Positions 4,621-57,973 of a stretch of DNA of 64,000 bases are shown in pieces. Origin of the DNA: Terriglobales bacterium (GTDB lineage: Bacteria; Acidobacteriota; Terriglobia; Terriglobales; Acidobacteriaceae); contig DATEJK010000117.1 in the NCBI GenBank assembly GCA_035278025.1, positions 11,293 to 75,292 of the forward strand, written 5' to 3'. The position numbers were made by a program, and so were the translations under genes. A model generated the notes under the pieces. That model did no database searches, was not told the origin of the DNA, and worked only from the letters and a program-made list of their open reading frames with translations. The stretch's first letter is position 1, and each line of letters opens with the position of its first letter.

Positions 4621-4848
4621 ATGCTGCGGCGCACGGACGTTATTGGATTTGCGGGCCTCGCGATGCTGGTGGCGGGAGCGATTCTGTTCCTTACCGGCTC
4701 GGAAAGCGAATTGACCTGGGTGTACTGGATGACCGGGACCTGTATCTGGTTTATCGGTTTTGGCGTGCTGCTGGGCTGGATCATGTGGCGCGCCGGAACA
4801 TTCACAGAACGGCCGGCGGCCAAATCCGCTGCCCCCCGCAAACAATAG
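4621..4848 (+). CDS. Small two-TM membrane protein, first gene of the Rieske/cytochrome b operon
   Basis: 75-aa ORF. Strong SD AAGGAGG lies 7 nt upstream of the ATG. Two hydrophobic helices (VIGFAGLAMLVAGAILFL; WMTGTCIWFIGFGVLLGWIMW). Ends 10 nt before the Rieske start. Confidence 0.55.
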   Translation: MLRRTDVIGFAGLAMLVAGAILFLTGSESELTWVYWMTGTCIWFIGFGVLLGWIMWRAGTFTERPAAKSAAPRKQ

Positions 4849-4858
4849 GACAGGAACC

Positions 4859-5329
4859 ATGCACTATGCACAACCACAACAGGAAGCAGTAGCGGCGCCG
4901 GGAAGACGTCGCTTTCTGGGCATGCTGCTGGGCGGCGGCCTGTTCGCCTCCGCCGTCTCATTTTTCTATCCCGTGCTGCGCTATCTGGTGCCACCGCGTA
5001 TTACGGACATGGGCGGCGACACCGTTGTGGCGGGCAAGGTGGGGGAACTGCGGCCCAACAGCGGCAAGATTTTCCGCTTTGGCAGCCGCCCCGGCCTTCT
5101 GATGCTGGGCGCCGACGGCCAGTACCGCGCGCTTTCCGCCACCTGCACCCACCTGAGCTGCACGGTGCAGTACCGCAGCGACCTGCGTGAGGTGTGGTGC
5201 GCCTGCCATAACGGCATGTACGACCTGTCCGGCCGCAACCTGTCCGGTCCTCCGCCCCGGCCGCTGGAGCAGTATGACGTGCACGTCCGCGGCGATGAGA
5301 TCATCGTCAGCCGCCGGCGGGAGGCGTAG
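4859..5329 (+). CDS. Rieske [2Fe-2S] subunit of a cytochrome bc/b6f-type complex, TAT-exported
   Basis: Cluster boxes CTHLSC and CACHNG. Twin-arginine signal GRRRFLGMLLGGG. Start moved from the track ORF (4760) to ATG 4859. Confidence 0.9.
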   Translation: MHYAQPQQEAVAAPGRRRFLGMLLGGGLFASAVSFFYPVLRYLVPPRITDMGGDTVVAGKVGELRPNSGKIFRFGSRPGLLMLGADGQYRALSATCTHLSCTVQYRSDLREVWCACHNGMYDLSGRNLSGPPPRPLEQYDVHVRGDEIIVSRRREA

Positions 5330-6409
5330 ATGGCGCCTTTGGTCCGCGTCCGCAACTGGCTGGATGAACGCTTCGGATGGGAGGAGTTGCTGGCTCCCCT
5401 GCGCCACAAGACCGTGCCCATCCACCGCTACTCCTACTGGTATTTTCTCGGCGGCATCACCCTCTTCCTTTTTGGGGTGCAGGTTTGCACCGGCATTCTG
5501 CTTTTGCTCTATTACCGCCCCAGCGCCAATGAAGCCTTTGAGAGCGTGCAGTACATCATGACCCAGGTGCAATTCGGATGGCTGGTGCGCTCGGTGCACT
5601 CCTGGGCCGCCAACCTGATGATCTTCACCGCCTTCCTGCACATGTTCAGCGTCCTGTTCCTGCGCGCCTACCGCAAGCCGCGCGAACTGACCTGGGTGAG
5701 CGGCATGCTGCTGCTGTTCCTGGCCATGGGCTTCGGCTTCAGCGGCTACCTGCTGCCCTGGAACACGCTGGCCTTCTTCGCCACCAAGGTGGGCACCGAC
5801 ATCGCCGGGCAGGTGCCCTTCGTCGGCCACCGCCTCATGGTCTTCCTGCGCGGCGGCGATGAAGTGACGGGGGCCACACTCAGCCGCTTTTTCGGCTTTC
5901 ACGTGGCCGTGCTGCCCGGGCTGATCACCTTGCTCATCTCCCTCCACCTGCTCCTGGTGCAGCGCTTCGGGATCAGCGTGCCGGCGCGCATAGAGCCGGA
6001 ATGGAAGACCATGCCCCGGGAAAAGCGCGAGATGCGCTTCTTCCCCAACTTCCTGCTCCGCGAACTGATGGCCTGGTACATCGCGCTGGGAGTTCTGGGC
6101 GCGCTGGCGGCGTTCTCGCCCTGGGGACTGGGAACCAAAGCCGATCCTTTTGCCCCCGCGCCCGCCGGCATCAAGCCGGAGTGGTACTTCCTGTTCATGT
6201 TCCAGACTTTGAAACTCATTCCCGCCAAGCTGGGCATGCTGGATGGCGAGGTGGTGGGCATCCTCACTTTCTCTCTCGCCGGGCTCATCTGGCTGCTGGT
6301 GCCTTTCCTCGATGGCACTAAGCGGACACAGCGCCTGGTTACAGGAGCGGCCATGTTCGTGGTGGCCTATATGGGAGCCATGACGGCATACGGTTATGTG
6401 GCGAAATAA
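5330..6409 (+). CDS. Cytochrome b (fused b6 + subunit IV type)
   Basis: 359 aa. Heme ligand pairs H-x13-H ([16 protein letters not shown]) and H-x14-H ([17 protein letters not shown]). Qo motif PEWYFL. No Cys at the b6 heme-ci position (YWYFLGGIT). Confidence 0.92.
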
Positions 6410-7649
6410 GAGCCTCGGCGTGGTACTGGTACTGGCAACCGCGGTGGCGCTGGCCCCGGCGCAGCAGCCCAACAGCTGCGTAGACTGCCATTCCGCACTG
6501 GAGGGTGAGCTGCACGTCACCCAGGAGCAGTTTGCCCAGGACATCCACGGGCAAAAGGGGCTGACCTGCGCCAGCTGTCACGGGGGCGATCCCAGCAAGA
6601 CCGACGACAGCGCCATGAGCAAGGCGGCCGGCTTCAAAGGCAAAATTGAGCGCGCGGCGGTGCCCAAGCTGTGCGGCTCCTGCCATTCCGATCCTGGGTT
6701 CATGCGCCAATACAACCCCTCTCTGCGCACCGACCAGCTCAGCCAGTACCAGACCAGCATCCACGGCAAGCGGCTGGCGGCCGGCGATACCAAGGCGGCG
6801 GTCTGCACCGACTGCCACGGCGTGCACGACCTGCGTCCGGCCTCCGACACCCGCTCCAAGGTTCATCCCCTGAACATCGCCGCCACCTGCTCGCGCTGCC
6901 ACGCAGATTCGAAGTACATGGCGGCATACAAAATCCGCACCGACCAGTACGCGGCTTACAAAATCAGCGTGCACCACCAGGCTATGGTGGAACGCGGCGA
7001 CTTAAGCGCGCCCACCTGCACCACCTGCCATGGCAACCACGGGGCCACGCCGCCCGGGGTGGCCTCGGTGGCTAATGTCTGCTCCACCTGCCATGTATTC
7101 CAGGCGCAGCTGTTTGATTCCAGCCCCCATAAGGCGGCGTTTGCTTCGGCGGGGCTGCCGGGTTGCGTTACCTGCCACAGCAATCATGGGATCAGCAAGC
7201 CAACCGACGAGATGCTAGGTACCGGCGCGAAATCGGTGTGCACCAACTGCCACACCCAAGGCGATGCCGGCTACCAAACGGCGGGCACGATGCAACAGCA
7301 AATCCTTGGCCTGGAGACCTCCATCAGCCGCTCTGACGCCATTCTCGACCGGGCCGAATCCTCCGGCATGGAGGTAAGCCAGGCGCGGCTGGAACTGGAC
7401 CAGGCCCGCGATGCGCTCACCAAGGCGCGGGTGAGCGTGCATACCTTTGCCGGCAAGGCCGTCCTCACGGACGTGGACTCCGGCTTGAAGATCACCGCCA
7501 AGACCTATGGCGAGGGCCAGGCCGCCCTGCGCGAGCGCGATTACCGCCGCACCGGCCTGGGCATGGCGCTGGTCGCGATCGTATTCGTAATGGTGGCCCT
7601 GCGGCTCTACATCAAGGAAATCGAGAAAAACGGAAAAAGCAGTACTTAG
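6396..7649 (+). CDS. Membrane-anchored multiheme (nine CxxCH) c-type cytochrome of the bc complex
   Basis: Signal peptide, nine CxxCH motifs (CVDCH, CASCH, CGSCH, CTDCH, CSRCH, CTTCH, CSTCH, CVTCH, CTNCH) and a C-terminal TM anchor [20 protein letters not shown]. Overlaps the cytochrome b stop by 14 nt. Confidence 0.9.
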
Positions 7650-7710
7650 CAGCTGGTAGTTGGTTGCTGGCCGTACTCATTGGTAGGCCTAACTACCAAC
7701 TACTAACTAC
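7649..7710. repeat. Imperfect hairpin built from the GGTAGTTGG/CCAACTACC word, starting at the cytochrome c stop codon
   Basis: GTAGTTGGT (7657-7665) is the exact reverse complement of ACCAACTAC (7695-7703). Flanking AGCTGG and CTACTAACTAC words match those at 18164-18193 and 53860-53920. Confidence 0.5.
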
Positions 7711-7869
7711 GCATGCGTGGCCTCCCTCTGATCGGTAAACCTCCTGCACATCTCCTCTTGCCTTGCGCACGTGGCCTTGTGATACACTCCCGCCCACAAA
7801 GTTAATGGGGTTCTCGCACCACTACATCTAGGGCTTGGCAGGAAAACTTCGAACCCGGGAGGCAAGGGG

Positions 7870-8669
7870 ATGGGCCTGGCACTTCTGTTGATTATCTGGC
7901 TGATCACCTTCTTCAGTTCCTACTTCTTCGTTGCTCATGCCTGGTGGCCACACGCAATTTCAGCAAGCGCCCCCTACATAGACCACCAATGGCACCTGAC
8001 CTTCGTCGCCATGGGAGTGATCTTCATCATGGCGCAGGTGACCCTGGGCCTGTTCGTCTGGCGCTTTCGCGACCGCGGCGACACGGCCAAGGCCAGCTAC
8101 TCGCATGGCAATAACAAGCTGGAACTCACTTGGACGGTGCTGACCGCCATCCTTTTCCTGGGCTTGAATGCCATCGGCAGCCCCATTTGGGCGGCTGAGC
8201 GTTTTCATTCCGCGGACCAGGGTGCCATGAAGGTGGAGGTCACCGGGCTGCAGTTCGCCTGGTACTTCCGCTATACCGGCGCGGATAACAAATTCGGCAC
8301 CACCCGCCCCGAACTGGAGGACGCTTCCCTGGGCGGCATGAGCGCTTTGGGTGTGGACTCCAACGATCCCGCCTCCAAAGACGACGTGGTCAGCGGCATC
8401 CTGGAGCTGCCGGTAAACACCGAGATAGACCTCACCTTGCGCTCCCAGGATGTGATTCACAGCTTTTTTGTTCCCGCCATGCGCTTCAAGCAGGACGCCG
8501 TGCCCGGGCTGATGATCCACATGCACTTCCGCCCCGAGCAGACCGGCGACTACGAAATCGCCTGCGCCGAACTATGCGGCTTGGGACACTACAAGATGCA
8601 CGGCATCATGCGCGTGGTAAGCGAGCAGGATTTCCAGAAATGGCTGGCGGCACGGGAGGCGGATAAACA

Positions 8670-8673
<4 letters not shown>
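7870..8673 (+). CDS. ctaC: Heme-copper (aa3-type) cytochrome c oxidase subunit II, no fused cytochrome c domain
   Basis: Two N-terminal TM helices. CuA site CAELCGLGHYKMH with upstream H (DVIHSFFVP). Stop overlaps the subunit I start (ATGA). Confidence 0.93.
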
Positions 8674-10427
<1,754 letters not shown>

Positions 10428-10433
10428 ATTGGT

Positions 10434-11183
10434 ATGGCCACATTGACTCCGACCTTAACGGTTAAGCAGCCCAAACGCCGTGGCGGCGGGACGGGGGACA
10501 TCCCCCACTACCCCGGCGGAGGCGGAGGTTCCGGCGGACGAGGCGACGATTCTCCCGACTACGGAGAGCGCCTGCGCCGGTGCCGCCTGGGACTGGCGGT
10601 GGGCATTGCGCCCATCGTGATGCTGTTCGTCGCCTTCAGCAGCGCCTATTTGGTGCGCCAGGGACTGGCTTCCTGGGACTTGCGGACCAACAGCTACATC
10701 AATGATTGGGCGCCGGTGCGCCTGCCCGTGCTGCTGCTGATGATCAACACCTGCTTTCTGCTGGTCAGCAGCGTGACCATGGAATTTGCCCGGCGGCAGG
10801 CCGCGCGCCTGGCGGCCCTTGCCCCCGTAACCGCCATTCCCGGCATCGCCGATGACGAACCCAGCGGCTTCCCCTGGCTCGGCCTGACCGTGGTCCTGGG
10901 ACTCGCTTTTCTGGCCGGCCAGGTGCTCGCCTGGCGGCAAATGGAGGCGTACGGCTTCTTCTTGTCCAGCAATCCCAGCAGTTCGTTCTTTTATCTGCTG
11001 ACCGGAATGCACGCCCTGCACCTGCTGGGCGGGGTCGTGGCGCTGCTCTATGCCTCGGTGACCTTCTGGATGAGGCGGCCGCCGGAATCGCGCCACATCG
11101 TGATAGACGTCACCGCCTGGTACTGGCATTTCATGGCTTTGCTGTGGCTGTACATATTCGCCCTGCTGGAAATTGCGCACTAG
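10434..11183 (+). CDS. Cytochrome c oxidase subunit III family protein (paralogue 1, Gly-rich N-terminal extension)
   Basis: 249 aa. C-terminal WYWHFMALLWLYIF motif typical of subunit III. N-terminal GGGTGDIPHYPGGGGGSGGRGDD extension. Confidence 0.85.
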   Translation: MATLTPTLTVKQPKRRGGGTGDIPHYPGGGGGSGGRGDDSPDYGERLRRCRLGLAVGIAPIVMLFVAFSSAYLVRQGLASWDLRTNSYINDWAPVRLPVLLLMINTCFLLVSSVTMEFARRQAARLAALAPVTAIPGIADDEPSGFPWLGLTVVLGLAFLAGQVLAWRQMEAYGFFLSSNPSSSFFYLLTGMHALHLLGGVVALLYASVTFWMRRPPESRHIVIDVTAWYWHFMALLWLYIFALLEIAH

Positions 11184-11201
11184 CTCGAGGAGGCTGGCAC
11201 A

Positions 11202-11960
11202 ATGGCCGATGTTGCGGTGCAACACAGCGTAACGGGAGCTTATGAGCCGTCGCTGTTCGGCACCTATTCCAAAAAGATCGGAATGTGGCTGTTCCTGCTT
11301 TCCGATTCCCTCACCTTCGGCGCGCTGCTGTTTGCCTATTCTTACGGCCGAATCTCCACCCCAAACTGGCCCACGCCGTTTGGCAAAGCCAGCATCGTGA
11401 ACGCCACCATCATGACCGTGTGCCTGCTCTCCAGCTCGCTCACCATGGTGCTGGGCGTGCTGGCCTCCAAGAAAGGCGACCACAAGGCGACGGTGAAGTG
11501 GCTGCTGGCCACCATGTTCTTCGGCGCGCTGTTCGTGGTGCTGCACGCCAAGGAATGGAGCGGGCTGATTCATGAAGGCCTGCGGCCGTTCAGCAATCCC
11601 TGGGCGAAGAACGTTCCCCAGTTCGGCGGCACCTTTTTTACCCTCACCGGAATGCACATGCTGCACGTGACTATCGGAGTGTGCTACCTGGGCGTGGTGG
11701 CGCTGCGCAAGAAGTGGATACCTATTCTGCTGGGCATCTGGCTGCTGGGATGGCTGCTGACGCCGGCCACCAACGTCTTCCACATCGGCATTCACGTCCT
11801 GCTGCTGGTGGCGGCGGTTTCCGCCCTCATTCTGGTTCTGAAACCCAAAGTTTACGACGCGCACGACGTAGAAATTGCCGGCCTGTACTGGCACTTCGTA
11901 GACCTGGTGTGGATGTTCATCTTCCCCCTGGTCTACCTGATGTCCACCAAGGTGGTGTAA
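11202..11960 (+). CDS. Cytochrome c oxidase subunit III family protein (paralogue 2)
   Basis: 252 aa with FFTLTGMHMLHV and LYWHFVDLVWMFIF motifs. Two III-like genes in a row recalls coxMNOP-type clusters. Confidence 0.85.
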   Translation: MADVAVQHSVTGAYEPSLFGTYSKKIGMWLFLLSDSLTFGALLFAYSYGRISTPNWPTPFGKASIVNATIMTVCLLSSSLTMVLGVLASKKGDHKATVKWLLATMFFGALFVVLHAKEWSGLIHEGLRPFSNPWAKNVPQFGGTFFTLTGMHMLHVTIGVCYLGVVALRKKWIPILLGIWLLGWLLTPATNVFHIGIHVLLLVAAVSALILVLKPKVYDAHDVEIAGLYWHFVDLVWMFIFPLVYLMSTKVV

Positions 11961-11990
11961 CGCACTCTGCTGAGCGGAGCCGAAACGACC

Positions 11991-12320
11991 ATGCATGATG
12001 TAGCCCTGAAACCGGGTGTTGCAGCAGTCCACGAGGAAAGCAGGACGCCCTACTACTTCGTGTGGGTGGCGCTGCTGATTCTCACCGCCATCGAGGTGGT
12101 GCTCACCTACAACCAGGTGTTCGCCCCGGTGCGCATGCTGGAAGTGCTCATGGGGTTGTCGGTGATAAAGTCGGCGATGATCATCTTCTACTTCATGCAC
12201 CTGAAGTTCGAAATCGCCCGCATGAAGTGGGTGCTGATGGTGGCCCTGGTGGTCTGCCTGACCCTGATGTTCGTGTTCTTTGCCGATGCCTTCCGCATTA
12301 TCAGCCTGGGTGTGAAATGA
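11991..12320 (+). CDS. Prokaryotic cytochrome c oxidase subunit IV family protein
   Basis: 109 aa, three TM helices. KSAMIIFYFMHLKFE resembles the bacterial CoxIV/CyoD-like family. Position directly after subunit III. Confidence 0.7.
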   Translation: MHDVALKPGVAAVHEESRTPYYFVWVALLILTAIEVVLTYNQVFAPVRMLEVLMGLSVIKSAMIIFYFMHLKFEIARMKWVLMVALVVCLTLMFVFFADAFRIISLGVK

Positions 12321-12330
12321 AGGACGTGCA

Positions 12331-12579
12331 ATGAAGCTGCGTGTGGCCATTCTCGGATTTGCTCTGGCGCTGTGGGCCGCACCCGCCTTCGGCCAGGGCT
12401 GTGCCATGTGCTACACCTCCGCCCTGGGCGCCACGCCCAAGAGCCAGAAGGCGCTCAGCAAAGGCGTAGCCGTGCTCCTGGTGCCTCCCGTAGGCATGAT
12501 GTCCATCCTGATCGGCGCCGGATTCGTGTACGCCCGCAAGCGCGATCAGCAGGTGGAAGAGAAAGAAACCCTGGTTTGA
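12331..12579 (+). CDS. Small exported protein with N-terminal CxxC (GCAMCY) and C-terminal TM anchor, last gene of the oxidase operon
   Basis: 82 aa. Signal peptide MKLRVAILGFALALWAAPAFG, then QGCAMCYTS. C-terminal helix VLLVPPVGMMSILIGAGFVY followed by a charged tail. Starts 10 nt after subunit IV. Confidence 0.5.
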   Translation: MKLRVAILGFALALWAAPAFGQGCAMCYTSALGATPKSQKALSKGVAVLLVPPVGMMSILIGAGFVYARKRDQQVEEKETLV

Positions 12580-20349: not shown

Positions 20350-20372
20350 TTGAAAATGAATTTCATTTTCAA
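20350..20372. promoter_or_regulatory. Perfect 11-1-11 palindrome TTGAAAATGAA-T-TTCATTTTCAA: Fur-box-like iron operator
   Basis: An AT-rich perfect palindrome in a GC-rich genome, 20 nt upstream of the FTR1 ATG. Its central 19 nt match the classical Fur box GATAATGATAATCATTATC at 14 of 19 positions (my count). A near-identical copy lies at 61799-61821 before feoA. Confidence 0.6.
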
Positions 20373-20392
20373 TTTGCTCGAGCCCGCTTGCC

Positions 20393-21640
20393 ATGATTGA
20401 CGCTCTTATTATCACCCTGCGCGAAGGCGTGGAGGCCGCGCTTATTGTCGGCATCACCCTCGCCTACCTGGCCAAGATCAGCCGCACTGACCTGCGCCGC
20501 GCCGTATACGCCGCCTTGGCCGCCGCTTTCCTGGGCAGCATTGGCGCCGCCCTCATCGTTTCCCGCCTCGACCTGAACCAGGACATCCTGGAAGGCTGGG
20601 TCATGCTGGCCGCCGCTTTCTTCGTGGTCACCATGGTGGTCTTCATGATGAAGACCGCGCGCAGCATGAAGGGCAAAATCGAGGGCAAGGTCGGCTTTCT
20701 GGCCGACCGCGGTTCTCAACTTGGCCTTTTCCTCTTCGTCTTCCTGATGGTGCTGCGCGAGGGCGTGGAGACGGTGCTCATTCTTTCCGCCGTCTCCCTG
20801 AATTCCAGCGCGCTCATGAATTTTCTGGGCACGCTGCTGGGAATCGCGCTGGCGATTGTGTTCGGGGTGATGTTCGTCAAAGGCTCGGTGCGCGTCAATT
20901 TGCGCAAGTTCTTTCGCATCACCAGCGTGATCCTCATATTTGTGGCGGTGCAGCTGGTGGTTTCCGGCCTGCACGAGCTCTCGGAGAACGGCGTGCTTCC
21001 CTCCAGCAAGCGGGAGATGGCGCTGATCGGGCCCATTGTGACCAATGAGGTGTTCTTCTTTGTGACCATCCTGGCCCTGGCTGCTCTGATGGTGCTGTTC
21101 GAGATGAAGCGCCGGCAGCCCGCGCCCGAGCCGGCCTCCCCCGCGGAGCGCCGCAAAGCCCTGTGGAGCGCCCGCCGCGAGCGCCTGTGGATGGTTTCCG
21201 TTTATGCCAGCTGCTTTCTGTTCATCGTGCTGGTGACGGCGGAATTCGTTTACACCAAGAGCGTGAGCGCGCTCTCCCCCGCCACACCGGTTGCCTTCCG
21301 CAATGGGCGACTGGGCATCCCCCTCTCCCAAGTCTCGGACGGCGAGCTCCATCGCTACGTCGCCACGGAACATGGTCTCCCGGTGCGCTTCCTGCTGTAT
21401 CGCAAGCCCGACGGCAGCGTGGCCACGGTGTTTGACGCCTGCGAAATCTGCGGCGGGGTGGGCTATTACAAAACCAGCCAGGGCCTGGTCTGCAAGAACT
21501 GCGGCGCTCCCATCAACGGCGCGACCGTGGGTCATCCCGGAGGCTGCAATCCGGTTCCCCTGCAGGCCGCAGTGAGCGGCGGGCAGGTGCTGATAACGGA
21601 GGCGGAAGTGGCGGCGGGGAGCCGCTACTTCCAGAAGTAG
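20393..21640 (+). CDS. FTR1/EfeU-family iron permease fused to a DUF2318-like (CxxC...CxxC) membrane domain
   Basis: 415 aa. Two REGxE motifs (LREGVEAAL, LREGVETVL) in the polytopic N-terminal part. A further TM segment is followed by FDACEICGGVGYYKTSQGLVCKNCGAPI, typical of DUF2318 proteins found next to ftr1-p19 loci. Confidence 0.85.
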   Translation: MIDALIITLREGVEAALIVGITLAYLAKISRTDLRRAVYAALAAAFLGSIGAALIVSRLDLNQDILEGWVMLAAAFFVVTMVVFMMKTARSMKGKIEGKVGFLADRGSQLGLFLFVFLMVLREGVETVLILSAVSLNSSALMNFLGTLLGIALAIVFGVMFVKGSVRVNLRKFFRITSVILIFVAVQLVVSGLHELSENGVLPSSKREMALIGPIVTNEVFFFVTILALAALMVLFEMKRRQPAPEPASPAERRKALWSARRERLWMVSVYASCFLFIVLVTAEFVYTKSVSALSPATPVAFRNGRLGIPLSQVSDGELHRYVATEHGLPVRFLLYRKPDGSVATVFDACEICGGVGYYKTSQGLVCKNCGAPINGATVGHPGGCNPVPLQAAVSGGQVLITEAEVAAGSRYFQK

Positions 21641-21643
21641 CCC

Positions 21644-22909
21644 ATGTTTCCCCGCCTGGTTTTTGAATCTTTCCGGCGTCAGCGTCGGCGCAAGCTGCTG
21701 GCCGGGGTGGCTATCGCCCTGGGCGTGGCCGTCGCCACCGCCATGATCGCGGTAGCCACCAACATCGGCGACAAGATTAATCAGGAGCTGCGCAGCTACG
21801 GCGCTAACCTGCTCATCACGCCCCAGGCGGATACCCTGGATGTAGAAATCGGCGGCGTGGACCTGAAGCCGCCCAGCGACGGCGCTTTCCTGAAGGAAGC
21901 CGATCTGCCCCGCATTAAGGGCACGTTCTGGAAAAATAACATTGTCGGCTTTGCTCCCATGCTGCCGGTGCGGGCCAGCATCGTCACCGGCACTCAAACC
22001 GAAGCTGCGGAAGTTGTCGGCACCTGGTTCGCTAAACAACTGGCCTATGATCGCGAATCCTTTGTCACCGGCGTGCGCACCACGAACCCGTGGTGGAGAG
22101 TGAGTGGCGGCTGGCCCGCCGATGATTCCTCGGACGTACTTTTGGGCAGGGAGTTGGCGGCAAAATTGGGACGGCGGCCGGGCGACAGCATTGCAATCAA
22201 CGGCCAGCCTCACCGTGTGGCCGGCATCCTGACTACGGGGGGCGCGGAGGAGGAGCAGATTGTCGCGCCGCTGCAAGTAGCGCAGCAGATTTTGGGGAGG
22301 CCGGGCGCGGTGCGCCGCGTGTTCGTCAGCGCGCTGACCAAGCCGGAAGACGCGCTCGCTTTGCGCGATCCCAAGACCATGTCGCCGGCCATGTTGGAGC
22401 GCTGGTCGTGCTCGCCTTACGTGCAGTCCATCGCCTATGTGCTGCAGAAGGCGATTCCCCACTCCCGTGTGGAGCCCATACGCCAGGTGGCCAGCACGGA
22501 AGGCACGGTGCTGGAGCGGATTCAGGGCCTGATGCTGCTGATCACGCTGGCTGCGCTGCTGGCTTCGGCGCTGGCTGTTTCCGCCGCGATGGCCACCGCC
22601 ATCTTCGAGCGCCGCAACGAAATCGGCCTGATGAAAGCGCTGGGCGCCGCCAATTTTACGGTTGCCTCCGTGTTCTTCGCCGAAGCTGCTCTGCTGGCGG
22701 TGCTGGGCGGAATCGTCGGATTTTTCGGCGGCGGCCTGCTGGCGCGGGAGATCGGTCGCAGCATCTTCAATTCGCAAATCAGCGTGCAACCGGTGCTCTT
22801 CCCCGTGATCCTGGGTATTGCGGCGCTGGTTACTTTCGCCGGCAGCGCCGTCGCCATTCGCCGCGCGGTGCGCTTCGATCCCGTGTACGCCCTGAAGGCT
22901 GAAGCATGA
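21644..22909 (+). CDS. ABC transporter permease, MacB/FtsX type
   Basis: 421 aa. N-terminal TM, large periplasmic domain, C-terminal FtsX module (FERRNEIGLMKALGA...). Starts 3 nt after the FTR1 fusion gene. Confidence 0.85.
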   Translation: MFPRLVFESFRRQRRRKLLAGVAIALGVAVATAMIAVATNIGDKINQELRSYGANLLITPQADTLDVEIGGVDLKPPSDGAFLKEADLPRIKGTFWKNNIVGFAPMLPVRASIVTGTQTEAAEVVGTWFAKQLAYDRESFVTGVRTTNPWWRVSGGWPADDSSDVLLGRELAAKLGRRPGDSIAINGQPHRVAGILTTGGAEEEQIVAPLQVAQQILGRPGAVRRVFVSALTKPEDALALRDPKTMSPAMLERWSCSPYVQSIAYVLQKAIPHSRVEPIRQVASTEGTVLERIQGLMLLITLAALLASALAVSAAMATAIFERRNEIGLMKALGAANFTVASVFFAEAALLAVLGGIVGFFGGGLLAREIGRSIFNSQISVQPVLFPVILGIAALVTFAGSAVAIRRAVRFDPVYALKAEA

Positions 22910-24036
22910 GCGCCATGCCTTCAATTCGCCGCTCGGGCAAGCGCGGGATGTTCCTGCGCATGCTGCTGCGCGCCTCGCTGGTCCGCCGTGGCCGGGCTCT
23001 CTCCGCCCTTCTGGCCGTGGTGGTGGCAGCCGCGGTCGCCACCGCTATGCTGAACCTGTACGTGGAAGTGCAAGCCAAGCTGCGCACGGAGTTCCGCAAG
23101 TACGGCGCCAACATTGTGGTGGTCGCCAAGCAGGGCCAGTCTCTTCCCGCGGACACGTTGTCCCGGGTGCAGGCGGCGCTGGCCGGGCGCGGCATCGCCG
23201 TGCCCTTTGCTTACGTGGTGGCCAGCACGGCGGACGGATCGCCGATTGTCGCTGCCGGAACAGACATGGAAAGCGTGCGCCGCCTGGATTCCTGGTGGAG
23301 CGTCTCCGCTTGGCCGCATGGCAGCGGCGAAGCCCTGTTGGGCTCGCGCGCTGCAACCGTAGTCAGCCTGCAGGGCCAGCCCTTCGATTTGAGTTTCCAC
23401 GGCCGCTCCATTCATCTGACCGCCGCCGGCACCCTCAGCACCGGCGCCGCCGAGGACAGCCGGGTTTATCTGCCACTTGCCGACTTTGCCGCCTGGACGG
23501 GCGTTCAGCCCTCGACCATAGAAATCGCCGCCAACGGCTCGGCGGCGCAAGTCGCGTCCATTCTGAAGCAGGTGGCCGCCGCGGTGCCCGGCGCCGAGGT
23601 CCGCCCGGTGCGTCAGATCATGGAAGCCGAGGGCCGGGTGTTGGGCAAAACTCGCTCGACTTTGCTGGCCGCCGCCGCCCTCATCATCCTGACCGCCGCC
23701 CTGTGCGTGCTGGCCACTCTGACCGCCTGGGTGCTGGACCGCCGCCGCGACTTCGCCATTATGAAAGCGTTGGGCGCCTCGGAGCGCCTGATCAGCGGCT
23801 TCTTCGCCGCCGAGGCCGCCTCCATCGGGGCGATGGGGGCTCTGTTGGGCTACGCCATCGGCATTGGGGCCGCCGCCTGGATCGGCCGCGCCAACTTTCA
23901 GGCATCAATTTCGCCACGTCTCAGCGTCCTTCCCAGCGTTTTCCTGGGCAGCATTGTGGTAGCCTTGCTCTCCGCCACCTTGCCCATGGCCCTGCTGCGG
24001 AGGGTGCAGCCGGCCACGATCCTTCGAGGGGAATAA
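22906..24036 (+). CDS. ABC transporter permease, MacB/FtsX type (second copy)
   Basis: 376 aa with the same architecture (DRRRDFAIMKALGAS...). Start overlaps the preceding stop by 4 nt. Confidence 0.8.
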   Translation: MSAMPSIRRSGKRGMFLRMLLRASLVRRGRALSALLAVVVAAAVATAMLNLYVEVQAKLRTEFRKYGANIVVVAKQGQSLPADTLSRVQAALAGRGIAVPFAYVVASTADGSPIVAAGTDMESVRRLDSWWSVSAWPHGSGEALLGSRAATVVSLQGQPFDLSFHGRSIHLTAAGTLSTGAAEDSRVYLPLADFAAWTGVQPSTIEIAANGSAAQVASILKQVAAAVPGAEVRPVRQIMEAEGRVLGKTRSTLLAAAALIILTAALCVLATLTAWVLDRRRDFAIMKALGASERLISGFFAAEAASIGAMGALLGYAIGIGAAAWIGRANFQASISPRLSVLPSVFLGSIVVALLSATLPMALLRRVQPATILRGE

Positions 24037-27088: not shown

Positions 27089-27463
27089 ATGACTGGCAAA
27101 CCGCGTTTTCTGCTCTGCAACTGCACCGGCGAATGTCCCGGGTTTAAGGACATGAATTTCTGGCAGCTGCTGAACTTTGTGCGCAATGAGCTGAAGTCCG
27201 AGTACGCCGTGCTCCACCCGCAGCTCTGCATGGATGATGGCGAGCGCTTTCTGGTGGAAATCCTCAAGCCCGGCGAGCGCTACGTTATCGGCGCCTGCGA
27301 CCCGCGCCTGCAGAAAAAAATGTTCCGCGACGCCTTTGCGAAAGCCGGAATCAGCTTCGACCAGCAGGTGGTTCCCCTCGACCTGCGCGCCATTTCCACG
27401 GAGCAGGCCATCGAAAAGGTACGCCAGGCTTTCGCCGAGATGGAGAGCCCGCCCGCCCTTTAA
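27089..27463 (+). CDS. Small Cys-rich protein, weakly MvhD/HdrA-C-terminal-like (tentative), inside the ars operon
   Basis: 124 aa with FLLCNCTGECPGF near the N-terminus and IGACDPR. Its layout resembles small iron-sulfur electron-transfer subunits. The assignment is tentative. Confidence 0.5.
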   Translation: MTGKPRFLLCNCTGECPGFKDMNFWQLLNFVRNELKSEYAVLHPQLCMDDGERFLVEILKPGERYVIGACDPRLQKKMFRDAFAKAGISFDQQVVPLDLRAISTEQAIEKVRQAFAEMESPPAL

Positions 27464-55913: not shown

Positions 55914-57263
55914 TCATAGAGAACTTGGGCTTGACCGCGAAAAGATAACAGGCTGATCTTGAACCTCAGGTGCCGGTTCTGCTGAGCCGGCGCCAGTTTC
56001 GAGATTCGGCTCGCCGCGCAAGGCTCGGCGCAACTGTGCCGCATCTACCTCACCTTCCCAGCGGCTCACCGCAAGAGTGGCCACACCATTGCCGATCACG
56101 TTAGCCAGGGCGCGACATTCGCTCATCAGCTTGTCCACTCCCAGCAGCAGGGCGAGCGACGCCACCGGTATCTGCGGGACAACACTGAGCATGGCCGCCA
56201 CTTTGACGAAGGCGCCGCCGGGCACCCCTGCGCCGCCCGTGGAAGCGATGAATGACACCAGCAGGATGCGCACTTCCTGGCCAAAGGTGAAGTGCACGTT
56301 GTTGGCCTGGGCCAGGAAGAACACGGCCAGCGTCATATAGATGTTGGCCCCGGCATTGTTGAAGCTGTAGCCCATGGGAAAAACAAGCCCGACGGTGGAA
56401 TCGGCCGAGCCCAGGTTGCGCAGCTTGCGGATCATGTCGGGAATCACGGTTTCCGAGGAACTGGTGCCCACCACGATCATCAGCTCATCCTTGATGTAGG
56501 CAAGGAAACGAAACAGCGAAAACCCCGACAGCCGGGCGATGATGCCCAGAATCACCAGCACGAAGAGGATCGCGGCCACATAGAAGGCGACTACCAGTTT
56601 CGCCAGGCTGGAGAGCGAGGTTAAGTCGTAGGCTCCGACGGTGAAGGCCATGGCGCCAAAGGCGCCGAGGGGCGCCAGCCGAACGATGATGCGCACGATG
56701 CCAAAAAATACCTTGGTGGCCAGTTCCACGGCTTCGCCCGCGCGCTTGCCCGCCTCTCCCATGCGCGCCATGGCGAATCCGCACAGCACCGCCAGCAGCA
56801 CAACCGGAAGAACGCTGCCGTGCACGAAAGCACCAACGAAAGTCTGGGGAATAATCTCCAGCAGCCAGCTGCCGAAGCCCGGGTTCCTGGAGTGGGCGGC
56901 AAAATGGGTGGCCTGGTGCAGGCTGAGCGAAGCGGTGAGCTGGCTCAATCCGCTGCCAGTGCGGCCAATCTGTGCGGCCAGCATTCCCATGACCAGCGTG
57001 ATGGCCGAAACCACGGCAAAGTAGGCCAGGGTCTTCAGCCCCACCCGCCCCAACTTCTTCATGTCGGTCATGGAGGCAATGCCCTGCACCAGGACCCCGA
57101 AGATGAGGGGCCCGATCATCATCTGGATGAGGGCAATGAAGGCGTCGCCCAGGGGCTTGAGGGCGAGGCCCAGCTTAGGGAAGAAATGTCCGACAGCGAT
57201 GCCCAGGACGATGCCCATCATCGTCTGGGCGTAAAGACCGGTGTACCAGGAACGCGGCTTCAC
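55914..57263 (-). CDS. Dicarboxylate/amino acid:cation symporter (DAACS, DctA/GltP-like)
   Basis: 449 aa, polytopic. Motifs MMIGPLIFGVLV, SSSETVIP and GVPGGAF are typical of the family. Start overlaps the upstream gene stop by 4 nt. Confidence 0.92.
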   Translation of the reverse strand: MKPRSWYTGLYAQTMMGIVLGIAVGHFFPKLGLALKPLGDAFIALIQMMIGPLIFGVLVQGIASMTDMKKLGRVGLKTLAYFAVVSAITLVMGMLAAQIGRTGSGLSQLTASLSLHQATHFAAHSRNPGFGSWLLEIIPQTFVGAFVHGSVLPVVLLAVLCGFAMARMGEAGKRAGEAVELATKVFFGIVRIIVRLAPLGAFGAMAFTVGAYDLTSLSSLAKLVVAFYVAAILFVLVILGIIARLSGFSLFRFLAYIKDELMIVVGTSSSETVIPDMIRKLRNLGSADSTVGLVFPMGYSFNNAGANIYMTLAVFFLAQANNVHFTFGQEVRILLVSFIASTGGAGVPGGAFVKVAAMLSVVPQIPVASLALLLGVDKLMSECRALANVIGNGVATLAVSRWEGEVDAAQLRRALRGEPNLETGAGSAEPAPEVQDQPVIFSRSSPSSL

Positions 57264-57835
57264 GGCTGGGCTTTTGCCGGTTGCTTTTCCGCCAGCACCA
57301 CCGCTAGTTCACCCTTCCTGGTCTTGAGAGTCATGAGCCAGCGCTGTCCGCCGGAGATGAAGCCGATCCAGTAGCCGATCTCCACCAGTTGAGGCTCCGT
57401 GAACTCGGCGTGCAGGCGCTCCCAGAGCGCATCATCGGCGCGGTCGGGATTCCAGATGATGGTATCGGCATAAGCCAGGGCGAGTTTTTCCCGCGGGGTA
57501 AAGCGCTCAGACTCTTCGTAGCGCGTCACCTCCGACATGCGGTCTTCTTTTGATCGCGCAGCCTGCGCGATTCCCTGGTGTGATCAATAACTGCACGACA
57601 TACTGAGGGCAATGTAGGCGCGCAACAGCTCCTTAAGGTCCCATTCCACCGTGCCCCGGCCCCGCTTGAACAGCATCTCGAAGGTGAGGGTGAAGGAGCG
57701 CATCACATCGGGCTGGTGGGCGCGTATGGCCTGGTTTTCCGGCCCAGGCCGGCCTACGCGGATGGAATCTTCTAGCCATTGCCGGGCCTGCGGGTCGGAA
57801 ATCTCTTTCGGAGTCAAATAGCTGATGCGTGCCAT
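57260..57835 (-). CDS. AhpD/carboxymuconolactone-decarboxylase-family protein with an in-frame TGA (probable selenocysteine) in the redox motif C-S-Y-U
   Basis: Track ORFs 57584-57835 and 57260-57538 are in the same frame. The 45 nt between them are open, so the only interruption is TGA at 57586-57584. Joined sequence: ...YIALSMSCSY[TGA]SHQGIAQAARSKEDRMSEVTRYEESERFTPREKLALAYAD.... The TGA sits where CMD-family proteins have the second Cys of CxxC. Confidence 0.7.
57553..57571 (-). promoter_or_regulatory. Candidate bacterial SECIS-like stem-loop downstream of the in-frame UGA
   Basis: The mRNA reads UGA-UCACACCAGGGA-AUCGCGCA-GGC-UGCGCGAU, an 8-bp perfect stem starting 12 nt after the UGA. The G-containing apical loop is about 20 nt after the UGA. 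Confidence 0.45.
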
Positions 57836-57973
57836 TGCGGTTCATTCCTCCATGGGACTGGAGAGCCTATCATATTATGGTATTACTGTCCTGCCAAACC
57901 TATACCAGATGGAAGGGAAAAAACAAAAGCCGCCCGCAGGCGGCCTTTGTTGTAAATGCTTCTTCCTTGCGGC

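Follow-up and report, generated by a model that had tools for sequence, protein, structure and literature searches.

AhpD-like selenoproteins and the locus under study

Proteins of the AhpD-like type that carry selenocysteine (Sec, U) in a C-x-x-U motif (COG2128/YciW, TIGR01926) were reported in the Sargasso Sea survey of 2005 (27 sequences; PMC1088965), and in the Global Ocean Sampling (GOS) data of 2008 the group named 'AhpD-like 1' was the fourth most abundant selenoprotein family, with 299 sequences (PMC2398784). They also appear in reviews and in BSepDB 2026 (PMC9312934, PMC13188914, PMC13326102), so that the place of AhpD-like proteins among the bacterial selenoprotein families, which the initial annotation of the DNA studied here had mentioned, is confirmed by the literature (PMC1088965, PMC2398784, PMC9312934). 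Two Cys-containing relatives have been described at the level of the active site. In Mycobacterium tuberculosis AhpD, Cys133 is exposed and forms a mixed disulfide with AhpC and Cys130 is partly buried (PMC6626918), while the proton relay of PA0269/AhpD runs Glu-Cys-(Tyr/His)-Cys-His, with the His at position +4 called invariant and essential (PMC3141380). Herein we analysed a stretch of 64,000 nucleotides (the window; contig DATEJK010000117.1, positions 11,293 to 75,292 of the forward strand) from the metagenome-assembled genome (MAG) of a soil acidobacterium deposited as 'Terriglobales bacterium', the contig itself being 77,646 bp long. A minus-strand gene at window positions 57260–57835 very probably encodes an AhpD-like selenoprotein, in which UGA codon 84 would be read as Sec by a SelB-type mechanism directed by a hairpin just downstream.

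The minus strand from 57835 to 57260 is a single frame of 191 codons, with one internal TGA at 57586–57584 (codon 84). It is seen by gene callers as two open reading frames (ORFs), 57835–57584 (83 aa) and 57538–57260 (92 aa), which share that frame and are separated by a stop-free gap of 45 nt (57583–57539), exactly as had been claimed for them initially; we checked this against both the sequence and the ORF listing. The joined product of 191 residues reads ...LRAYIALSMSCSY-U-SHQGIAQAARSKEDRMSEV..., or, in a longer excerpt around the motif, ...KELLRAYIALSMSCSY-U-SHQGIAQAARSKEDRMSEV.... Directly after the TGA comes the codon TCA, and no in-frame start follows before Met100. Three features carry the argument, including a candidate selenocysteine insertion sequence (SECIS) and matches to the carboxymuconolactone decarboxylase (CMD) family:

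57260–57835, minus strand: complete gene for a putative AhpD-like (COG2128-type) selenoprotein, 191 codons plus stop (ATG at 57835, UGA codon 84, terminal TGA at 57262–57260); assigned from the frame, from CMD/AhpD sequence, profile and fold matches, and from orthologues of the same layout.
57584–57595, minus strand: redox motif C81-S-Y-U84 (TGC AGT TAT TGA) with the predicted Sec codon UGA at 57586–57584; assigned from the Cys column (8/8) and the TGA (83/83).
57553–57571, minus strand: SECIS-like hairpin, with 5' arm AUCGCGCA (57571–57564), loop GGC (57563–57561) and 3' arm UGCGCGAU (57560–57553); assigned from the fold, covariation, the pairing of TGA forms versus Cys forms, and lowered synonymous divergence.

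Like the CxxU AhpD-like selenoproteins of the surveys, the predicted protein belongs to the same superfamily, has Sec as the second residue of CxxU and widespread Cys homologues, and its gene holds a SECIS-like hairpin just past the UGA. It differs from them in falling below the cut-offs of TIGR01926 and NF053654, and in its Terriglobia operon with the carrier gene dctA, which is not mentioned in the cited literature. That this type of enzyme uses selenium is thus known already, and the gene corrects an annotation and adds no new mechanism or kind of system. The novelty lies in an annotation error that recurs systematically in at least 80 species, in the lack of the canonical His and in the operon with dctA.

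Conservation of the TGA codon and coding constraint

In order to follow the TGA codon across species, the GTDB set was scanned with one genome per species, which returned 80 loci; three metagenome contigs brought the total to 83. Sixteen of the GTDB-set loci are from Terriglobia/Acidobacteriota (74–97% identity), and the other 64 (58–67% identity) are mostly from Burkholderiales/Betaproteobacteria, Gammaproteobacteria (Candidatus Rariloculaceae) and Binatia, with one 'Deltaproteobacteria' MAG. The homologous codon is TGA in 83 of the 83 loci (80 species from at least three phyla, plus the three metagenome contigs), and TGC or TGT in none. An identical interruption at the same codon in every one of 83 related loci is therefore far beyond chance. 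The three metagenome contigs, which carry relatives of the fragment type, each have an ORF of 83 or 90 aa that ends in TGA, a C-terminal ORF in the same frame and an SDF-family carrier downstream. One gammaproteobacterial orthologue (L057, around 547–590) has an extra in-frame TAA 11 codons past the conserved TGA (…GAK*D…), so that this gene is either a pseudogene or wrongly assembled in its MAG.

An alignment of nine TGA forms and eight Cys forms places Cys in the TGA column in all eight of the latter, and in PA0269 the counterpart of the TGA is likewise the second Cys of CAYC, as it is a Cys in solved CMD-family structures. Whether a Cys would align with the TGA was a check named at the outset, and its answer is affirmative. 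C81, E69, Q87 and the triplet R38-A39-H40 are invariant in the same alignment.

Among 13 Terriglobia orthologues, the ratio of nonsynonymous to synonymous divergence (dN/dS) is 0.02–0.13 both upstream (codons 1–83) and downstream (codons 100–191) of the TGA, which indicates that both halves of the gene are under strong purifying selection. The 15 codons from the TGA to the next Met are in frame in the orthologues, and dS over codons 85–99 is 0.1–0.9 (mostly 0.2–0.5) versus mostly 1–2 in the flanks, where the two closest orthologues have lower values. A low dS at these codons is expected where an RNA structure overlaps the coding sequence. A C-terminal protein initiated by itself could begin no earlier than Met100 and would lack conserved residues, Q87 included. 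The orthologues are not genuinely split genes: the TGA, the frame and the covarying SECIS-like hairpin are all kept in them.

The SECIS-like hairpin

The candidate hairpin AUCGCGCA-GGC-UGCGCGAU has an 8-bp stem and a 3-nt loop (−11.5 kcal/mol), begins 12 nt past the UGA, and has its loop 20 nt from that codon. The stem lies at an equal distance from the UGA in every orthologue, despite peptides that differ (IAQAARS, SAQGARS, TARSARD, AARGAK), and the loop variants found among the TGA forms are GGC, GGG, GUC/GGUC(C) and GUG. Over 77 distinct sequences, 82% of the cells are paired and five of the eight pairs have changed on both sides (U-A/C-G, C-G/U-A, G-C/A-U, A-U/G-C). Covariation scores 0.190, compared with 0.107 in shuffles, and 0 of 500 shuffles attain the observed value; sliding the 3' partner by one to three columns lowers the pairing to 20–61%. 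The unpaired cells come mainly from Gammaproteobacteria, in which the stem is shifted by one base (CGCCC-GUG-GGGCG). The hairpin also tracks the residue at the TGA column: 76 distinct TGA forms have 5–8 of the 8 pairs in register, with a mean of 6.9, whereas six Cys-form genes, which lack the hairpin at a comparable G+C, have 1–4, with a mean of 2.7. RNAalifold, applied to all 77 sequences, mixes two registers (Gammaproteobacteria being one base off), for which reason its consensus is weak, at −3.96 kcal/mol; conservation was therefore scored by explicit structure and pair counts in place of this consensus. In comparison with SECIS elements of the E. coli fdhF type, the candidate hairpin is shorter and simpler, with a perfect 8-bp stem, a 3-nt loop and no evident bulged U.

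Taken as a whole, the conserved TGA, its alignment with Cys, the purifying selection and the covarying hairpin support the initial proposal of a probable selenoprotein.

Points against Sec insertion and alternative readings of the TGA codon

Several observations count against Sec insertion at this codon. The folding energy of the single hairpin sequence is unexceptional for G+C-rich DNA (z = −0.87, with 36 of 200 shuffles folding as well), and a scan of the window with Rfam at gathering thresholds returned no matching family. The protein's Pfam CMD score falls just below the gathering threshold, and the protein passes no NCBIfam model. Using ARAGORN, neither a tRNA gene nor a tRNA-Sec was found in the 64-kb window, and no tRNA-Sec in the 83 loci. 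Pfam scans showed no selA, selB or selD among the predicted genes of the window, and the ~2.4 kb past its right-hand end hold two unrelated genes only. Finally, E. coli probes for SelA, SelB and SelD found no match by tblastn in 1.33 Mb of loci, which is a weak negative. The search for sel genes thus covered the 64-kb window, the ~2.4 kb past its right-hand end and the flanks of 94 loci, the source being a MAG.

Because the single-sequence fold is not significant, the case for a SECIS rests on the comparative evidence. The same insignificant fold, together with the weak RNAalifold consensus on 77 sequences, would also fit a hairpin that arises incidentally from G+C-rich codons for Ala and Arg (GCG CAG GCU GCG CG) and is no SECIS at all, with any read-through depending on something else. 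Such a by-product is hard to reconcile with peptides that differ by clade (IAQAARS, TARSARD, AARGAK) while a stem with a G-containing loop is held at constant distance, with exchanges of U-A to C-G, C-G to U-A, G-C to A-U and A-U to G-C, with the suppression of synonymous change in the region, or with the absence of a hairpin from the six Cys-form genes of comparable G+C. We consider it very unlikely.

A slighter chance attaches to a UGA that is recoded to a residue other than Sec, either to Cys via a selC* tRNA-Cys or through an allo-tRNA suppressor, with the SelB/SECIS-type signal kept. selC* tRNA-Cys species that mimic tRNA-Sec have been described, as have allo-tRNAs of Acidobacteria that may be nonsense suppressors (PMC5389517). 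The selC* genes come, however, from anaerobic Firmicutes, Thermodesulfobacteria, Nitrospirae and Proteobacteria, and not from Acidobacteria (PMC5389517). Burkholderiales and Gammaproteobacteria have this TGA and hairpin as well, and AhpD-like CxxU proteins are a standard selenoprotein family (PMC2398784), both of which favour Sec.

Slimmer again is the prospect of a genuinely split gene, in which the ribosome would terminate at the UGA and the C-terminal part, initiated on its own, would associate with the N-terminal piece of 83 residues. An ATG does follow the TGA directly in five loci (L001–L003, L016 and L019), where gene callers use it as a start, but the next codon is TCA, GCG or AGC in the window and most orthologues. 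In the window the next start is only Met100, yet codons 85–99 are in frame and conserved, with Q87 and G88 invariant. The break would moreover fall inside the CxxC motif, no Shine-Dalgarno sequence precedes the second piece, and the covarying hairpin would be left without a role.

A pseudogene or a sequencing or assembly error, i.e., a nonsense mutation in an ordinary CxxC AhpD-like gene, might be suspected from the two fragments given by GenBank and other gene callers, the MAG source and the additional TAA of orthologue L057, but has a negligible chance of being correct, being effectively refuted by the TGA in 83 of 83 independent loci (80 species and three metagenomes) and opposed by the strong purifying selection on both halves and by the exact 83-aa and 92-aa products on many independent contigs.

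A reassigned genetic code was also considered and rejected, as TGA is an ordinary stop in the window (62% G+C), where it terminates 21 of the 54 predicted genes. A scan of the window returned around 110 other TGA-split frames, nearly all of which are due to chance at this G+C.

Protein family and fold

With Cys placed at the TGA, the score of the window protein on the Pfam CMD model (PF02627) is 22.2 bits, versus a gathering score of 23, and the same family is precomputed for many of its homologues. The NCBIfam models NF053654 ('YciW-related (seleno)protein') and TIGR01926 ('peroxidase-related enzyme') give 41.9 bits against a cut-off of 310 and 35.9 bits against a trusted cut-off of 81.8, respectively, and no member of the alignment approaches either cut-off (best E-value 3.3e-20, for NF053654). 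Since the scores miss the trusted cut-offs of both models, the gene is placed in a subfamily of its own, for which no curated model exists.

A search of 5.8 billion proteins retrieved full-length homologues of 186–196 aa at ~55% identity, from Acidimicrobiia and others, with the motif C-T-Y-C-S-N-Q. The closest relatives (73–83% identity) are present there only as C-terminal fragments of 105–107 aa. When the family profile was compared with the PDB, PA0269, Atu0492 and Bmp8 were matched at E-values of 1e-8 to 1e-7. The fold was assessed on the AlphaFold model of a Cys homologue (P0001, 55–56% identical to the window protein), used as a stand-in; this model is all helical, with a predicted local distance difference test (pLDDT) score of 92.6. 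In Foldseek it matched 2prr, 6k40 and 2oyo with template-modelling (TM) scores of 0.69, 0.71 and 0.70, respectively, at a probability of 1.00 each, all three structures being of the 'AhpD core / peroxidase-related' type. Judged by these profile matches and the modelled fold, the predicted protein is a member of the AhpD/CMD superfamily. Decarboxylase-type CMD proteins have a three-helix motif without Cys-x-x-Cys (PMC3141380). A gamma-carboxymuconolactone decarboxylase proper was ruled out, as the family has an invariant CxxC/U and the putative gamma-CMD structure 2q0t was matched only at E = 2 and TM 0.27.

Three described systems delimit the family further. NF053654 ('GroundWater_YciW') is likewise a Sec/Cys family and the best NCBIfam match for 17 of 17 family members, end to end (residues 1–158 on model positions 1–157). 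Scores of ~40 bits, where the equivalog cut-off is 310, and a best E-value of 3e-20 nevertheless place the gene outside this family. PA0269 (2o4d/2ijc) and M. tuberculosis AhpD share with the predicted protein a helix-turn-helix active-site core, a Glu 12 residues before the first Cys, the Tyr of C-x-Y-C and a second Cys at the TGA position. Unlike them, it has Gly88 for the +4 His, an extra N-terminal region with the invariant R38-A39-H40, no adjacent ahpC and Sec predicted for Cys. The Bmp8 debrominase (6ohi/6ohj), a thiol-dependent reductive dehalogenase of the CMD family, resembles it in full-length fold and size (~175–183 residues aligned, TM 0.65–0.68, profile E-value 1e-7), although the identity is 18–21% and there is here no bmp gene context and no sign of halogenated substrates. 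Bmp8 shows that an AhpD-like fold can perform Cys-based reductive chemistry on small molecules, beyond protein-disulfide exchange.

Active-site residues and proposed mechanism

The motif C81-S-Y-U84 occupies the Cys-x-x-Cys position, where the second core helix starts, and E69 precedes C81 by 12 residues, which is the spacing from Glu36 to Cys48 in PA0269 (PMC3141380). Glu69, Cys81 and Tyr83 thus match members of the PA0269/AhpD relay. Q87, invariant among the nine TGA and eight Cys forms, is nearly invariant (at least 90%) in a wider alignment of 49 sequences. At position +4 after U84, the subfamily has Gly88, with Gln87 beside it, in place of the canonical AhpD His; some distant Cys homologues have Arg there (Q-R). 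The His said initially to lie close by does exist in the window protein as His86, but it is Asn in most orthologues and does not stand at the canonical position. The clade is hence AhpD-like in fold and motif, yet it lacks one defining feature of the characterized alkylhydroperoxidases, and it extends the AhpD-like CxxU group by members without the canonical catalytic His.

In the mechanism that we propose, UGA codon 84 would be read as Sec to give the active-site motif C81-x-Y-U84, with recoding directed by the short G+C-rich hairpin within the coding sequence, which would serve as the bacterial SECIS to which SelB binds together with Sec-tRNA(Sec). The enzyme made in this way would be a thiol-selenol oxidoreductase of the COG2128/YciW type, with C-x-Y-U as its motif. 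If M. tuberculosis AhpD and PA0269 are taken as the guide to the roles of the individual residues, U84 may be the exposed attacking nucleophile and C81 its buried resolving partner, and the invariant Glu69 may take part in a proton relay. The initial annotation had cast the second Cys as the resolving one; this does not hold, as in M. tuberculosis AhpD it is the second Cys (Cys133) that attacks AhpC (PMC6626918). Pfam scans of the window's predicted genes gave no match to the AhpC/TSA family, the neighbours being dctA and an OmpA-family gene. The predicted selenoprotein gene would be co-transcribed and translationally coupled with the former, a DctA-type dicarboxylate carrier.

Pairing with dctA and gene neighbourhood

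The features that bear on transcription and on the partner gene are as follows:

55914–57263, minus strand: DctA-type C4-dicarboxylate carrier of the SDF/DAACS family, 449 aa; its GTG start (57263) overlaps the stop of the predicted selenoprotein gene by 4 nt (GTGA); PF00375 317.7 bits, NF002461 (DctA) 514.9 bits versus a cut-off of 513, GenBank name DctA.
57847–57851, minus strand: Shine-Dalgarno-like GGAGG, 11 nt 5' of the ATG, read directly from the sequence.
57869–57897, minus strand: sigma-70-like promoter match TTGGCA-17-TATGAT (10/12), a consensus match only, with 0.7 expected by chance in the scanned region.
57922–57951, minus strand: terminator-like hairpin with a T-run, 3' of the upstream OmpA-family gene, found by sequence scan.

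The terminator-like hairpin marks the boundary at which a separate ahpD-like/dctA transcription unit opens. The carrier lies directly downstream in 19 of 19 Terriglobia-type loci and in none of the 64 others, and its match starts 324–325 nt past the TGA in 17 of the 19. The 4-nt overlap with a DAACS symporter, noted from the outset (GTGA at 57263), is kept across Terriglobia species that have diverged to ~74% identity. On this comparative evidence, the pairing is real and lineage-specific, a probable operon of Terriglobia. In two Terriglobia loci (L010 and L013) the carrier is matched in part only (184 and 73 aligned residues), which is suggestive of frameshifts or masked bases in the two assemblies, or of a decaying dctA there.

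Outside Terriglobia the neighbourhood is different. In the 64 other loci (L020–L083), the commonest neighbour is a receptor of the TctC family (tripartite tricarboxylate transport), found within 5 kb in 35 of 64, and GntR regulators, oxidoreductases, a patatin-like protein and a family III CoA-transferase recur. The Cys-form genes of Acidimicrobiia are accompanied by LacI, an MFS carrier, OsmC, a second CMD protein, FrsA-like hydrolases and EamA.

A selenoprotein and a carrier that are paired in this way could form a dedicated two-gene module in Terriglobia, in which the CxxU enzyme would process, or protect from, an imported carboxylate substrate; we regard this as rather unlikely. One example of such chemistry would be the reduction of a dicarboxylate that is oxidised or electrophilic, or that carries selenium or sulfur. 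TctC receptors and dctA both serve carboxylate uptake, and the receptors beside the proteobacterial orthologues would point toward such a carboxylate-substrate module. TctC/Bug genes are, however, very numerous in Burkholderiales. For this reason, and given that the loci are phylogenetically related, the TctC neighbours were not accepted as strong evidence and may be there by chance. Decoding of the UGA as Cys by a mimic of tRNA-Sec is less likely than the two-gene module. If true, the module would represent a transporter-coupled function of a selenoenzyme not described for AhpD-like proteins, and the conserved partner dctA offers a first handle on the substrate of the AhpD-like CxxU family.

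Annotation in public databases

The GenBank record presents the gene as HKU21849.1 and HKU21848.1, both named 'hypothetical protein' (83 and 92 aa), which adjoin the DctA entry HKU21847.1. The expectation that a standard gene caller would report two fragments is thus borne out by the deposited entries. For the window gene and its closest relatives alike, GenBank, JGI and ENA hold two 'hypothetical' or partial proteins, and the JGI label of the C-terminal piece, 'alkylhydroperoxidase family enzyme', is the name of COG2128. The exact 83-aa and 92-aa products are found on dozens of independent contigs. As the same TGA layout occurs in at least 80 species and no curated NCBIfam model covers it, a subfamily model would bring one more selenoprotein into the annotation of many genomes from soil and freshwater, and would also flag aerobic Terriglobia as selenium users.

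Selenium use and other observations in the window

Sec users are known among the Acidobacteria, for which a count of 2006 listed three selenoprotein families with four selenoproteins (PMC1794560). The window holds a respiratory block at 4760–12579 (Rieske protein, cytochrome b, multihaem cytochrome c, and cytochrome c oxidase II, I, III in two copies, and IV), because of which we take the organism to be an aerobe, and one that apparently uses Sec.

Among the Acidimicrobiia loci with Cys forms, L094 has a GRDB/PrdB-family gene (7829–7047, minus strand; similar in L084, L085 and L086) that is called as two pieces of 166–168 aa and 91–94 aa. Its frame reads ...LLAPG-TGA-PMCHRS..., with a UxxC motif, and the gene is probably a second unannotated selenoprotein. 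If so, the organisms concerned use Sec yet retain Cys in the AhpD-like protein.

Elsewhere in the window, the segment 25727–28218 looks like an arsenic-resistance cluster, with an SBF/ACR3-type carrier, a 4Fe-4S ferredoxin and an ArsC of the low-molecular-weight (LMW) phosphatase type. Within it, a Cys-rich ORF of 124 aa (27089–27463), starting MTGKPRFLLCNCTGECPG..., has no Pfam match. At 20369–22924 on the minus strand, the longest ORF (851 aa) has a low third-position G+C (GC3; 0.64) and no Pfam match, and is overlapped on both strands by shorter frames of higher GC3, which makes the gene map of this segment tentative.

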